Part shown: piece by piece, positions 40,028 to 42,734 of the stretch
Layout: every line of letters starts with the position of its first letter
How positions within the stretch are numbered: position 1 is the stretch's first letter
Source of the DNA: Deltaproteobacteria bacterium
GTDB taxonomy: Bacteria; Myxococcota_A; Bradymonadia; REDH01
DNA: 64,000 bases
Direction of reading: 5' to 3'
NCBI GenBank assembly: GCA_007693585.1
Contig: REDH01000072.1
Location: 77,321-141,320, forward strand
Made by a program: the position numbers and the translations under genes
Notes under the pieces: model-generated
The model's input: only the letters and a program-made list of their open reading frames with translations
The model's database searches: none
Told to the model about the DNA's origin: nothing

Positions 40028-40108
40028 TGCGAGAGTGGTGGAATTGGCAGACACGCAAGACTAAGGATCTTGTGGCCGCAAGGCTGTGAGGGTTCGAGTC
40101 CCTCCTCT
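40028..40108 (+). tRNA. tRNA-Leu (type II, long variable arm). Anticodon read as AAG by manual folding.
   Basis: Acceptor GCGAGAG / CTCTCGC with discriminator A. 3-bp D-stem. Anticodon stem CAAGA / TCTTG with loop CTAAGGA (U33, anticodon AAG, G37). T-arm GAGGG-TTCGAGT-CCCTC. No encoded CCA. Confidence 0.8.
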
Positions 40109-40115
40109 CGCACTG

Positions 40116-40149
40116 ACGCCCCGGTCTCCCGACCGGGGCGTTTTCGTTT
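40116..40149 (+). terminator. Intrinsic terminator after tRNA-Leu
   Basis: 10-bp perfect stem cgccccggtc / gaccggggcg with a tccc loop, followed by ttttcgtttt. Confidence 0.6.
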
Positions 40150-40214
40150 TCGGCGGCTCGCCTCGGGGTGTATTGCACCCGTGCCGGGGTTTCCGCGAGA
40201 CCAGGGAGGGTGTC

Positions 40215-41492
40215 ATGCTGGATGTTCGCGCCGTACTCGATAACCTGGACGATGTTCGGGAGCGCACGAAGGCCCGTGGCGCGGCATTCGACATCGAGCG
40301 CCTGGCCGCTCTGGCGGAGGAGCGTCGCGATGCGATCCACGCGTTCGAGCAGCTTCGGGCAGAGCAGAAGAGGGCTTCGGGGGAGATGAAGGGGCTCCGT
40401 CCCGGCAGCGAGGAGTTCGACGCGCTGCGCACTCGGCTTCGGGAGATGAGTGATCGGATCAAGGCCCTGGACGAGGCGCGCCGGCTTGCGGACGAGGCGC
40501 TGGAGGCGCTGCTTCTGGAGGTCCCGAATCCGATCGCGCCCGGCGTTCCGCGGGGTGCCAGCGATGCGGACAATGTGGAGGTTCGCCGCTGGGGAACGCC
40601 ACGTTCGTTCGACGGCGAGGAGGTCCGGGACCATGTGGACCTGGCGACGGAGCTTGGGATTCTCGACATGGAGGCCGCGGCGCGGGTGTCGGGGGCGCGC
40701 TTCGCGTTTCTGACTGGCGCGGGAGCCCGTCTCGAGCGCGCGCTGGCATCGCTGATGCTCGACATCCAGACGGTGGAGCACGGCCATGTGGAGGTGGCGG
40801 TCCCGTATCTGGTGCATGCGCCGTCGCTGGTGGGGACTGGGCAGTTGCCGAAGTTCGGGGAGGATCTGTTCCGGGCGGGGGAACACTATCTGATCCCGAC
40901 GGCGGAGGTTCCGCTGACGAATCTCTTCCGGGAGCAGATCATCGAGGGCCTGGAGGAGCCGATTCGGCTCTGTGCGCACACGCCCTGCTTCCGGCGTGAG
41001 GCGGGCAGCCATGGCCGGGACACCCGGGGGCTGATCCGGATGCACCAGTTCTCGAAGGTGGAGATGGTGCGGATCTGCCGTCCGGAGGACAGCGAGGCGG
41101 AGCACGAGTCGATGGTGCACCACGCGTGTCTGGTGCTGGAGCGCCTTGAACTTCCGTACCGGGTGGTGGAGCTGTGTAGCGGCGACATCGGGTTCAGTGC
41201 GGCGCGGTGTTTCGACATCGAGGTCTGGCTGCCGTCGCGCGGCGGATACGTGGAGATCTCGAGCTGTTCGAACTGCCATGACTTCCAGGCGCGTCGGGCG
41301 GGCATCCGCTACCGGCCGGAACCGGGTGCCCGTCCGCAGTTCGCGCACACGCTCAACGGGAGTGGCCTGGCGGTGGGACGCGCGCTGGTGGCGGTGCTGG
41401 AGAACGGCCAGCAGGAGGATGGAAGTGTCCGTCTGCCGGTGGCTCTGGTGCCGTACATGGGGGGCATCGAGGTTTTGCGGAAGGGGGGCTGA
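40215..41492 (+). CDS. serS: Seryl-tRNA synthetase
   Basis: N-terminal coiled-coil MLDVRAVLDNLDDVRERTKARG.... Class II core motifs FRREAGSHGRDTRGLIRMHQFSKVEM and GSGLAVGRALVAVLEN. RBS GGGAGGG. Confidence 0.9.
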   Translation: MLDVRAVLDNLDDVRERTKARGAAFDIERLAALAEERRDAIHAFEQLRAEQKRASGEMKGLRPGSEEFDALRTRLREMSDRIKALDEARRLADEALEALLLEVPNPIAPGVPRGASDADNVEVRRWGTPRSFDGEEVRDHVDLATELGILDMEAAARVSGARFAFLTGAGARLERALASLMLDIQTVEHGHVEVAVPYLVHAPSLVGTGQLPKFGEDLFRAGEHYLIPTAEVPLTNLFREQIIEGLEEPIRLCAHTPCFRREAGSHGRDTRGLIRMHQFSKVEMVRICRPEDSEAEHESMVHHACLVLERLELPYRVVELCSGDIGFSAARCFDIEVWLPSRGGYVEISSCSNCHDFQARRAGIRYRPEPGARPQFAHTLNGSGLAVGRALVAVLENGQQEDGSVRLPVALVPYMGGIEVLRKGG

Positions 41493-41584
41493 GGCCCCCG
41501 GGGCAGCGTCGGATCCGGCGGTTGCCCGGGACAGGTTTCTCTTGCTTCGCGGGCGCTGTCCATGCTAGTCGTGCCGCCCCGCTT

Positions 41585-41667
41585 CGGAGGAGTGGCCGAG
41601 CGGTCGAAGGCGGCGGTCTTGAAAACCGTTGTGCGAAAGCACCGGGGGTTCGAATCCCTCCTCCTCC
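41585..41667 (+). tRNA. tRNA-Ser (anticodon TGA)
   Basis: GGAGGAG acceptor with discriminator G. Anticodon stem CGGT/ACCG around loop CTTGAAA. Long variable arm. T-loop TTCGAAT. Confidence 0.75.
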
Positions 41668-41716
41668 GCTGAGCTGCTCCCCGTCTTTGACAAGTGAATG
41701 TCGGAACGATTCGTCA

Positions 41717-41806
41717 GGAGTGGTGGCCGAGTGGCTGAAGGCGCTCGCCTGCTAAGCGAGTATACGGGCAAAACCCGTATCGAGGGTTCGAATCCCTCCC
41801 ACTCCG
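41717..41806 (+). tRNA. tRNA-Ser (anticodon GCT)
   Basis: GGAGTGG acceptor. Anticodon stem CTCGC/GCGAG around loop CTGCTAA. Long variable arm. GAGGG-TTCGAAT-CCCTC T-arm. Confidence 0.75.
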
Positions 41807-41912
41807 CTGGTTTTCTCCGGTTCGGGAGGCGGTGTCGTGCCAGCCGATTCGCCGTTGACACCTTCGGGTGCGGCGAGTAGGAGCACGCTCCGCTTCCGGA
41901 CGGGAGCCCGAC

Positions 41913-41986
41913 GCACCCATAGCTCAACTGGATAGAGCATCGGTCTACGGAACCGAAGGTTTCAGGTTCGAATCCTGATGGGTGTA
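41913..41986 (+). tRNA. tRNA-Arg (anticodon ACG)
   Basis: GCACCCA acceptor with discriminator A. D-arm AGCTCAACTGGATAGAGC. Anticodon stem TCGGT/ACCGA around loop CTACGGA. T-arm TCAGG-TTCGAAT-CCTGA. Confidence 0.8.
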
Positions 41987-42004
41987 CTGGACGAATCGAG
42001 GAGA

Positions 42005-42475
42005 ATGGGCGTGTGCAGTGACGCGGACATCGGGTTCATGCGTCAGGCGCTTGCGCAGGCGAGCGCTTGTCTTCCCGCCGGGGACGTTCCCGTCGGGGCG
42101 GTGCTCGTGCGAGACGGCGAAGTGCTGTCGGTCGGGCGCAATCGCCGTGTGGAGGAGGGTTCTCCCCTGCTCCACGCCGAGCTGGACGCGATCGAACGTG
42201 GAGCCCGTGCACTCGGCTCCTGGCGTCTGGACGCCTGCACCCTGTACGTGACACTGGAGCCGTGCGTGATGTGTGCGGGTGCGGTGCTGCAGTCCAGGGT
42301 GGGCCGGGTGGTCTATGGCGCGGACGATGCGAAGGCCGGTGCGGTCCGGTCACTGTATCAGGTGCTGGAGGATCCACGATCGCCGTTCTCCGTGAAGGTT
42401 TCGCGTGGCGTGCTGGCAGAGGAGTGTGCCGCCTTGCTGCGGTCGTTCTTTCGGGAGCGCCGGGGCGGGAAGTGA
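42005..42475 (+). CDS. tadA: tRNA-specific adenosine(34) deaminase
   Basis: FMRQALAQA...VPVGAVLV...HAELDAIE...TLEPCVMCAGAVLQSRVGRVVYGADDAKAGA are the CDA-fold H(A)E and PCxxC zinc motifs. The ATG at 42005 carries the RBS GAGGAGA and lies 19 bp after tRNA-Arg(ACG). Confidence 0.85.
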   Translation: MGVCSDADIGFMRQALAQASACLPAGDVPVGAVLVRDGEVLSVGRNRRVEEGSPLLHAELDAIERGARALGSWRLDACTLYVTLEPCVMCAGAVLQSRVGRVVYGADDAKAGAVRSLYQVLEDPRSPFSVKVSRGVLAEECAALLRSFFRERRGGK

Positions 42476-42504
42476 GTCTCGCCAGCCGAAGCCGTCGCGA
42501 GTCC

Positions 42505-42591
42505 GGAGGGGTGGCCGAGTGGTCGAAGGCGCTTGACTCGAAATCAAGTGTACGTTCACGCGTACCGTGGGTTCGAATCCCACCCCCTCCG
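42505..42591 (+). tRNA. tRNA-Ser (anticodon CGA)
   Basis: GGAGGGG acceptor. Anticodon stem CTTGA/TCAAG around loop CTCGAAA. Long variable arm. GTGGG-TTCGAAT-CCCAC T-arm. Confidence 0.75.
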
Positions 42592-42647
42592 CTTCGCGGG
42601 CCATCGAACGGTGGCCCCGAACGAATCGTGTCCGACATCACCCGAAT

Positions 42648-42734
42648 GGAGAGGTGGCCGAGTGGTTGAAGGCGCACGCCTGGAACGCGTGTAATCGGGA
42701 AACCGGTTCGTGGGTTCGAATCCCACCCTCTCCG
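42648..42734 (+). tRNA. tRNA-Ser (anticodon GGA)
   Basis: GGAGAGG acceptor. Anticodon stem CACGC/GCGTG around loop CTGGAAC. Long variable arm. GTGGG-TTCGAAT-CCCAC T-arm. Confidence 0.75.

Follow-up and report, generated by a model that had tools for sequence, protein, structure and literature searches.

A conserved serS–tRNA–tadA gene cluster of Bradymonadia-like bacteria, with a tRNA-Leu(AAG) that is a likely second substrate of TadA

We describe a gene cluster in a 64-kb stretch of DNA from a Deltaproteobacteria bacterium (contig REDH01000072.1; the whole stretch is called the window, or W), in which the seryl-tRNA synthetase gene serS is followed on the + strand by genes for four tRNA-Ser species, tRNA-Arg(ACG), the tRNA adenosine(34) deaminase TadA and the RNA of the signal recognition particle (SRP). 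We are fairly confident that the locus is a compact set of translation genes, inherited vertically and organized as several tRNA-type transcription units, and that a tRNA-Leu whose anticodon has changed from GAG to AAG is likely edited by TadA. tRNA genes were called with ARAGORN, RNA families with Rfam and proteins by profile search. The window holds six tRNA genes in total, all confirmed by Rfam and all on the + strand, between 40029 and 42735. The cluster reads, in order:

39443–39925, + strand: secG, 160 aa (TIGR00810, 70 bits; the exact 160-aa product is also found on an independent Logan contig)
40029–40113, + strand: tRNA-Leu(AAG) (ARAGORN; Rfam, 55 bits)
40215–41492, + strand: serS, seryl-tRNA synthetase, 425 aa (TIGR00414, 481 bits; exact product also on the Logan contig)
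41586–41669, + strand: tRNA-Ser(TGA) (ARAGORN, Rfam)
41717–41807, + strand: tRNA-Ser(GCT) (ARAGORN, Rfam)
41913–41987, + strand: tRNA-Arg(ACG), anticodon loop CUACGGA (G37), the canonical TadA substrate (ARAGORN, Rfam)
42005–42475, + strand: tadA, tRNA adenosine(34) deaminase (NF008113, 162 bits; alternative starts GTG 42011 and ATG 42038)
42505–42592, + strand: tRNA-Ser(CGA), 29 nt past the tadA stop codon (ARAGORN, Rfam)
42648–42735, + strand: tRNA-Ser(GGA) (ARAGORN, Rfam)
42781–42873, + strand: SRP (4.5S) RNA, ffs (RF00169)
42994–45228, + strand: dnaX, DNA polymerase III gamma/tau (TIGR02397, 450 bits; alignment from open reading frame (ORF) residue 30–32)
45180–45599 (ORF), + strand: ybaB (PF02575)
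45601–46212, + strand: recR (PF21176, PF13662, PF21175)

The initial annotation of this region had reported serS, tadA and five of these tRNA genes, and its identities, order, strand and coordinates are borne out by ARAGORN and Rfam for the tRNAs, with anticodons TGA, GCT, ACG, CGA and GGA as claimed, and by protein profiles for serS and tadA. Its statement that all four tRNA-Ser isoacceptors are present holds for anticodon types in the window, and further copies may lie elsewhere. It left out secG, tRNA-Leu(AAG) and its terminator, the SRP RNA, dnaX, ybaB and recR, and its start coordinate of 40028 falls just ahead of the unreported tRNA-Leu gene. The description of tRNA-Arg(ACG) as the one canonical substrate of TadA overlooks this A34-containing tRNA-Leu at 40029–40113, and because the second A34 tRNA was missed, the annotation understates the case.

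The protein and RNA assignments are secure at the level of profiles. SerS scores 481 bits against TIGR00414 (cut-off 301.65) and is full-length, its residues 1–415 aligning to positions 1–418 of the 418-position profile; the SRP RNA is likewise full-length, matching positions 1–97 of the small-type model RF00169 with 67.4 bits (gathering score 40). TadA exceeds the cut-off of the NF008113 equivalog (162 against 150 bits), has both zinc and catalytic motifs (HAE and PCxxC), and matches known TadA structures, 2B3J, 1Z3A and 2NX8 (from S. aureus, E. coli and S. pyogenes), at E values of 3e-40 to 6e-38. Residues H46-A47-E48 and P75-C76..C79 are invariant in our TadA alignment, from which P0002, a duplicated, E. 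coli-like TadA, was left out. By these matches the product is a tRNA adenosine(34) deaminase, and deamination of A34 in tRNA-Arg(ACG) is predicted.

Seven genomes were compared: W; L165, L166 and L168, which are related to Bradymonadia (L168 is itself labelled Bradymonadia, a class of Myxococcota); and L004, L012 and L057 from the Myxococcia. L004 is labelled Archangiaceae and L057 Myxococcaceae, as is a further locus, L169; L012 is labelled Pseudomonadota, yet its tRNAs hardly differ from the L057 set. The whole secG-to-dnaX order of W is found in L165, L166 and L168, and the serS-to-ffs order in the three Myxococcia, so that the arrangement of serS with four tRNA-Ser genes recurs in six other genomes; the SRP RNA holds the same position in all six. 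Upstream of the cluster lie gap, pgk, tpiA and secG, and the wider order rhomboid-gap-pgk-tpiA-secG-serS of W is shared by four loci reached through the best TpiA homologues, L165, L166, L168 and L170, the last of which stops after serS. TadA and TpiA of W are themselves present at 100% identity on a 181,782-nt contig of the source assembly, TpiA as TVR02555.1. Since the proteins of the six same-order genomes are only 47–59% identical to those of W, the layout must be old and maintained. A TadA scan of a genome collection, a SerS scan of metagenomes and protein searches returned nothing above about 60–61% protein identity; conservation is therefore judged from distant relatives, and the lineage is deep. 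We conclude that the layout is inherited, a conserved Myxococcota arrangement and not a one-off. The view that it is unusual stands for bacteria generally, where it is uncommon, and falls for W itself, to which it is not peculiar, being conserved in Myxococcota and built from older modules. By our own arithmetic, which assumes a genome of ~5 Mb, the probability that four independently placed genes all fall in the 1.3 kb after serS and on its strand is ~3e-16, or ~2e-8 for tRNAs moving as two pairs; chance does not come near to explaining the arrangement, and the finding is statistically secure.

That the cluster or the A34 arose as an assembly or binning artefact is suggested by the origin of W, a metagenome-assembled genome, and by repeated tRNA-Ser sequences, which break short-read assemblies (the Logan contig stops just past serS). 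This explanation is effectively refuted: the 289-nt secG–serS spacer that holds tRNA-Leu(AAG), A34 included, is 100% identical in an independent Logan assembly (run SRR7901804), and the whole order is found in six other genomes from other projects.

The most novel point of the locus is tRNA-Leu(AAG), which lies directly after secG and 1.9 kb upstream of the tadA region. It combines an AAG anticodon, in the stem-loop CAAGA-CUAAGGA-UCUUG with A34, with Leu identity elements (A73 as discriminator and a variable arm of the long type); leuU of E. coli has an almost identical D-arm. Because the secG-linked tRNA-Leu is AAG in the five clade genomes W, L165, L166, L168 and L170, and the gene at this site reads GAG in L169 (Myxococcaceae) and, as leuU, in E. 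coli, the G34-to-A34 change is a clade trait that arose in place; the secG-linked gene would have switched from GAG to AAG in the Bradymonadia-like lineage. The two A34 anticodon loops of W, CUAAGGA in tRNA-Leu and CUACGGA in tRNA-Arg, differ at position 35 only, and C32 and A38 are found in the tRNA-Leu loop of W and L165. S. pyogenes TadA has two substrates and deaminates tRNA-Leu(AAG), with an editing consensus of YUAMGRA (PMC11472039), which the W tRNA-Leu loop fits. The anticodon is not read by the leucyl-tRNA synthetase LeuRS (PMC11028032). CUC makes up ~47% of the Leu codons in the ORFs of W and is the commonest of them (CUU, ~8%), so that a tRNA left with A34 would make a poor decoder here and deamination to inosine (I34) by TadA is likely. 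On this combination of loop, site and codon usage, tRNA-Leu(AAG) is likely deaminated to IAG by the same TadA, and would then be able to read the dominant CUC codon. In surveys of bacteria, tRNA-Leu(AAG) is almost entirely confined to Bacilli/Firmicutes (PMC13249217; PMC8007984; bioRxiv 10.64898/2026.05.15.725136), and we found no publication linking Bradymonadia or Myxococcota with A34 tRNAs; the gene described here represents a new case of a phenomenon already known, phylogenetically independent of the others.

The editing of tRNA-Leu has to be weighed against the alternative that this tRNA is not a TadA substrate, and either superwobbles with unmodified A34 (on CUU and other codons) or is minor or redundant beside a tRNA-Leu(GAG) encoded elsewhere. 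Several points tell in favour of this alternative and against editing. E. coli TadA does not deaminate tRNA-Leu(AAG) (PMC11472039), so activity of TadA on this tRNA is not a given here; E. coli tolerates A34 tRNAs of four-fold codon boxes (bioRxiv 10.64898/2026.05.15.725136); and our scan covered the 64-kb window, so that an extra tRNA-Leu(GAG) is possible elsewhere in the genome. By codon usage the AAG and GAG clades cannot be told apart, CUU/(CUU+CUC) being 0.13–0.17 in the former and 0.11 in Myxococcia; these values lie within the spread of other codon boxes, and we set this ratio aside as an uninformative signature of I34. Opposed to this alternative are the position of the AAG gene at the GAG gene's site and its conservation in five divergent genomes, its own promoter-like element and terminator (below), a loop that now resembles that of tRNA-Arg, with C32/A38 in W and L165 and position 35 as the sole difference, and the prevalence of CUC; in Lactobacillales, moreover, AAG and GAG never co-occur (PMC13249217). 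We regard an unedited tRNA-Leu(AAG) as possible and, on balance, somewhat unlikely.

We also looked for TadA residues that track tRNA-Leu(AAG). At 42380–42391 (residues 115–118 of the 145-aa form), W TadA reads SPFS in place of the LNHR shared by more than 90% of TadA sequences; the Asn of LNHR is equivalent to S. aureus Asn123, which contacts the C32–A38 pair. The segment is STHR in L165, LPHR in L166 and still ANHR in L168, so that the Asn123 equivalent is lost in three of the four clade members and retained in L168 and in S. pyogenes. No TadA residue correlates cleanly with tRNA-Leu(AAG): Asn123 is mixed, and the Arg in GAVRS is common elsewhere. On the tRNA side, the tRNA-Arg(ACG) loop is CUACGGA in the Bradymonadia-like clade and CUACGAA in Myxococcia and E. 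coli; G37 of tRNA-Arg was rejected as a special feature, since G37 is also found in the substrate of S. aureus TadA (PMC3711424).

We next consider transcription, for which the window offers the following elements:

39959–39988, + strand: promoter-like element before tRNA-Leu, TTGACC, N17-18, CATAAC/ATAACC (read from the sequence; low confidence)
40115–40152, + strand: intrinsic terminator of the tRNA-Leu unit, a 12-bp stem followed by TTTTCGTTTT
41542–41571, + strand: P1, promoter-like, TTGCTT, N18, TAGTCG, G+C-rich discriminator, 14 nt ahead of tRNA-Ser(TGA)
41684–41692, + strand: conserved spacer motif TCTTTGACA between tRNA-Ser(TGA) and tRNA-Ser(GCT)
41855–41883, + strand: P2, promoter-like, TTGACA, N17, TAGGAG, 29 nt ahead of tRNA-Arg(ACG)

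A first unit would consist of tRNA-Leu(AAG) alone, read from its own promoter-like element and closed by a strong terminator, with serS next, 101 nt downstream. This terminator (fold −25.4 kcal/mol, z = −4.1) is the only convincing one from secG to dnaX in W and has equivalent hairpins in L165, L166 and L168, which also have a counterpart of the promoter-like element in the same place (TTGAC[CG], N17-18, TA[AG]..); no terminators were found inside the cluster in relatives. A second unit, from P1, would carry tRNA-Ser(UGA) and tRNA-Ser(GCU), and a third, from P2, tRNA-Arg(ACG), tadA, tRNA-Ser(CGA), tRNA-Ser(GGA) and the SRP RNA, with only a weak hairpin before dnaX-ybaB-recR. A P1-type pattern stands 14–51 nt ahead of tRNA-Ser(TGA) in six of the seven genomes; a P2-type pattern stands 12–14 nt ahead of tRNA-Arg in L166 and L168 and is absent from the shorter spacers (20–53 nt) of the Myxococcia. 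The relaxed pattern behind these comparisons (TTG[AC]NN, N16-18, TA[GT]NNN, then a G+C-rich discriminator) has only 11 matches on both strands of the whole window, or 0.086 per kb per strand, so that ~0.008 are expected per 90-nt region.

The initial annotation had suggested that the whole arrangement, serS included, is co-regulated or co-transcribed, that is, one long operon from a serS promoter in which the synthetase is co-regulated with its substrates. All the genes lie on one strand with short gaps, and the spacer between serS and tRNA-Ser(TGA) has no terminator in W or its relatives. That same spacer, however, holds the P1-type element with its G+C-rich discriminator in six of the seven genomes, which is why serS probably need not be co-transcribed with its tRNAs. 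Rfam, including RF00230, finds no T-box or other recognised tRNA-sensing leader on serS in the window at the gathering score, unlike the Bacilli, where a T-box is present at serS of L029 and L064 (140 bits), and an adjacent same-strand tRNA-Ser occurs at none of 80 other serS loci (below). Read-through from serS may add to transcription of the tRNAs and is probably not its main source. We therefore think a single serS-driven operon improbable. What survives of the suggestion is co-transcription of tRNA-Arg(ACG) with tadA, which the anatomy supports well, with gaps of 2–50 nt, no terminator and a conserved promoter-like element upstream of the tRNA; likewise, the reading of enzyme next to substrate holds for the tRNA-Arg/tadA pair in the sense that co-transcription is forced, and is weaker for serS and tRNA-Ser.

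The case for a shared precursor is made by the spacing around tadA. Spacers within the units of W are 47, 17–50, 29, 55 and 45 nt and lack terminators, and the sole terminator-like site across the tRNA-Arg/tadA stretch is a weak one inside the tadA coding region. The range of 17–50 nt reflects the choice of tadA start codon, the gap to tRNA-Arg being 17 nt for ATG 42005, 23 nt for GTG 42011 and 50 nt for ATG 42038, the start of the 145-aa TadA annotated by NCBI; the figure of 19 bp first given for this gap thus depends on the start codon chosen. We favour 42005 or 42011, since TadA homologues carry ~10 extra residues with a D..FMR pattern ahead of the conserved MRxAL, and since GAGGAG lies at 41998–42003; this ribosome-binding site begins ~11 nt past the 3' end of tRNA-Arg. 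In-frame tadA starts lie 2–34 nt after tRNA-Arg in the relatives other than L165; the range is 2–26 nt for W, L166 and L168 and 17–34 nt for the Myxococcia. Neither in W nor in these relatives is there a terminator or promoter space around tadA, the arrangement of a mixed tRNA-mRNA operon. Lacking promoter space of its own, tadA would have to draw its expression from the tRNA precursor, the alternative being a promoter within the tRNA gene. From the conserved P1/P2 elements and the start of tadA 17–50 nt past tRNA-Arg, we infer that a single precursor transcript carries tRNA-Arg, tadA, two tRNA-Ser and the SRP RNA.

The flanking tRNAs and high G+C content often lead to errors in public gene calls around tadA: the TadA entries P0050 and P0077 extend into translated tRNA-Ser, and in L166 (7247–7699) tadA is called on the wrong strand.

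With no room for its own promoter, the tadA mRNA would be made as an inter-tRNA segment of this precursor. None of the cluster tRNA genes encodes CCA, and upstream release of the mRNA would come from 3' processing of tRNA-Arg by an RNase Z or RNase E type of activity, and downstream release from RNase P cleavage at tRNA-Ser(CGA). TadA synthesis would in this way be tied to tRNA-type promoters and to the making of its own substrate, and the G+C-rich discriminators suggest that those promoters may be under growth-rate or stringent control. The further proposal of an independent two-substrate TadA system in G+C-rich Myxococcota, with tadA in a tRNA operon and its output tied to substrate supply, we hold to be evenly poised; in its strongest form, TadA would bind the nascent tRNA-Arg next to the ribosome-binding site of tadA and so regulate its own translation by feedback.

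Within the P1 unit, the spacer that separates tRNA-Ser(TGA) from tRNA-Ser(GCT) carries TCTTTGA[CA]A without variation in each of the seven genomes; the 64-kb window has a single copy (0.12 expected). We rejected TCTTTGACA as a −35 element of tRNA-Ser(GCT), because it lies only 10–13 nt from the tRNA in Myxococcia; TCTTTGA(C/A)A may be an RNase E-type processing site. At the far end of the P2 unit, a weak hairpin with a poor T tract at 42890–42902 is all that separates the SRP RNA from dnaX in W. A clear hairpin follows ffs in L004 and L057, as judged by eye, and dnaX is elsewhere or 2.5 kb off in these genomes. In the W lineage, transcription may run on from the tRNA operon into dnaX-ybaB-recR.

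The operon model has its own difficulties. The relaxed promoter pattern was partly derived from the same sequences and is partly circular, hence supportive and not proof, and a scan with the strict sigma-70 consensus finds no promoter in the region of W or in three relatives. In L165 the gap between tRNA-Arg and tadA is ~120 nt, and no P2 match is present; a promoter inside the tRNA-Arg gene is a possible alternative source of tadA transcripts. To these must be added the wider linkage of tadA across bacteria, where it is found far oftener beside tRNA-Ser, a non-substrate, than beside tRNA-Arg.

That comparison rests on 80 tadA-centred loci from many phyla and 80 serS-centred metagenome loci, both sets being the best-scoring among the first 600 pattern hits and not random samples, with some loci incomplete. 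tRNA-Arg(ACG) adjoins tadA in 3 of the 80 tadA-centred species, only the three Myxococcia loci, and in none of the serS-centred loci (0/80) is serS followed within 1 kb by a tRNA-Ser on its own strand. A tRNA-Ser lies within 130 nt of tadA, on either side and either strand, in 23/80 species; in 18/80 loci it follows tadA on the same strand within that distance, and in 17 of these 18 it is tRNA-Ser(CGA). The loci with tadA followed by tRNA-Ser come from Actinomycetota (including Streptomyces), Acidobacteriota, Planctomycetota, Desulfuromonadales and Myxococcota. The SRP RNA is within 1 kb of tadA in 16/80 (Bacillota, Actinomycetota, Acidobacteriota and Myxococcota). The linkage of tadA to tRNA-Ser thus spans at least five phyla. 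As the usual tRNA partner of tadA is a non-substrate (23/80 versus 3/80), adjacency alone is weak evidence of an enzyme–substrate relationship, and the linkage of tadA may be historical and not functional.

Parts of the layout recur far from Myxococcota. In E. coli K-12, secG and leuU, a tRNA-Leu(GAG), are 14 nt apart, and serV, tRNA-Ser(GCU), is followed after 3 nt by argV, tRNA-Arg(ACG). In Bacilli, serS with a T-box leader is followed ~180 nt on by tRNA-Ser(TGA) and, after 2–3 kb of other genes, by tadA, a large SRP RNA and dnaX. The full layout is lineage-specific but assembled from ancient linkages, and we found no publication on the serS/tadA/tRNA-Ser/dnaX neighbourhood. These modules, spread over phyla and in varied orientations, together with the non-substrate partner of tadA, are what would be expected if the cluster were a retained ancestral gene order around ffs-dnaX-recR with no functional coupling, kept perhaps by selection on gene dosage or position, the adjacency of enzyme and substrate being incidental. 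Spacers of tens of nucleotides in seven genomes and a tadA without a promoter region speak against it, since shared transcription is forced whatever the origin, and we consider a purely historical explanation unlikely. We prefer to see the cluster as a set of mixed tRNA-mRNA operons in an ancient neighbourhood of translation and replication genes, with function throughout read from sequence.

Other features of the window are noted for completeness. SecG has an acidic, Pro/Ala/Glu-rich C-terminal extension of ~70 residues, and long SecG proteins (130–165 aa) are also found in L165–L170. Directly past recR, at 46341–49331, are a Roadblock/LC7 protein and a small Ras/Arf-like GTPase (an MglB/MglA-like pair), followed within the same interval by a diacylglycerol-kinase-like protein and a PP2C phosphatase. 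Two very large ORFs, 3607–8526 and 24363–30158 (1639 and 1931 aa), are matched only faintly by known domains, one by a Met-zincin fragment and the other by TPR repeats.

The cluster provides a clear natural example of a tRNA-modifying enzyme encoded within the predicted precursor of its own substrate, and makes the matching of TadA level to tRNA supply directly testable. Retention of tRNA-Leu(AAG) and I34 has been explained by codon recoding in A+T-rich Lactobacillales (PMC13249217, PMC11472039, bioRxiv 10.64898/2026.05.15.725136). An independent, conserved G34-to-A34 switch in G+C-rich, CUC-dominant Myxococcota is a natural counter-example to that account, and with the AAG clade a preference for U-ending codons can be told apart from explanations that invoke decoding kinetics or the specificity of TadA. 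The clade further provides a second TadA lineage, unrelated to the first, where determinants of relaxed position-35 specificity may be sought, a question relevant to TadA-derived base editors.

Among known systems, the closest to the tRNA-Leu(AAG) of W is the two-substrate TadA of Lactobacillales (Oenococcus, Streptococcus), where an AAG tRNA-Leu likewise stands where GAG is expected (PMC11472039, PMC13249217). As there, the TadA of W is of the ordinary homodimer type and the anticodon loop fits YUAMGRA. Unlike those A+T-rich Firmicutes with raised CUU use, the W genome is G+C-rich (69%) and dominated by C-ending codons, both its A34 tRNAs lie within 2 kb of tadA, and its I34 is a prediction. 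The difference in phylum (Myxococcota, Bradymonadia-like) points to an independent origin. E. coli shares with W a secG followed by a CUY-reading tRNA-Leu and a tRNA-Ser(GCU) followed by tRNA-Arg(ACG) (serV-argVYZQ); there, however, secG-leuU, serV-argVYZQ, serS and tadA are scattered over the chromosome, and leuU is GAG. Bacilli (L029, L040, L064) resemble W in having tRNA-Ser(TGA) ~180 nt after serS, and tadA, SRP RNA and dnaX in sequence, a region that in B. subtilis gene names reads serS-tRNA-Ser ... tadA-scr(ffs)-dnaX-yaaK-recR; they differ in the 2–3 kb of other genes between tRNA-Ser and tadA, the lack of tRNA-Arg or a further tRNA-Ser, the T-box leader of serS and the large-type SRP RNA. 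In Actinomycetota, Acidobacteriota and other groups, tRNA-Ser(CGA) follows tadA on the same strand after 14–130 nt, as in W, often with tRNA-Ser(GGA) and ffs-dnaX nearby, but these tadA loci are without adjacent serS, tRNA-Arg(ACG), tRNA-Ser(TGA) or tRNA-Ser(GCT). The thrU-tyrU-glyT-thrT-tufB operon of E. coli is a mixed tRNA-protein operon, and tadA of W, we infer, is similarly transcribed from a tRNA promoter and freed by tRNA processing. In contrast to tufB, the protein encoded in W modifies the tRNA encoded just upstream, and its gene has tRNAs on both flanks.

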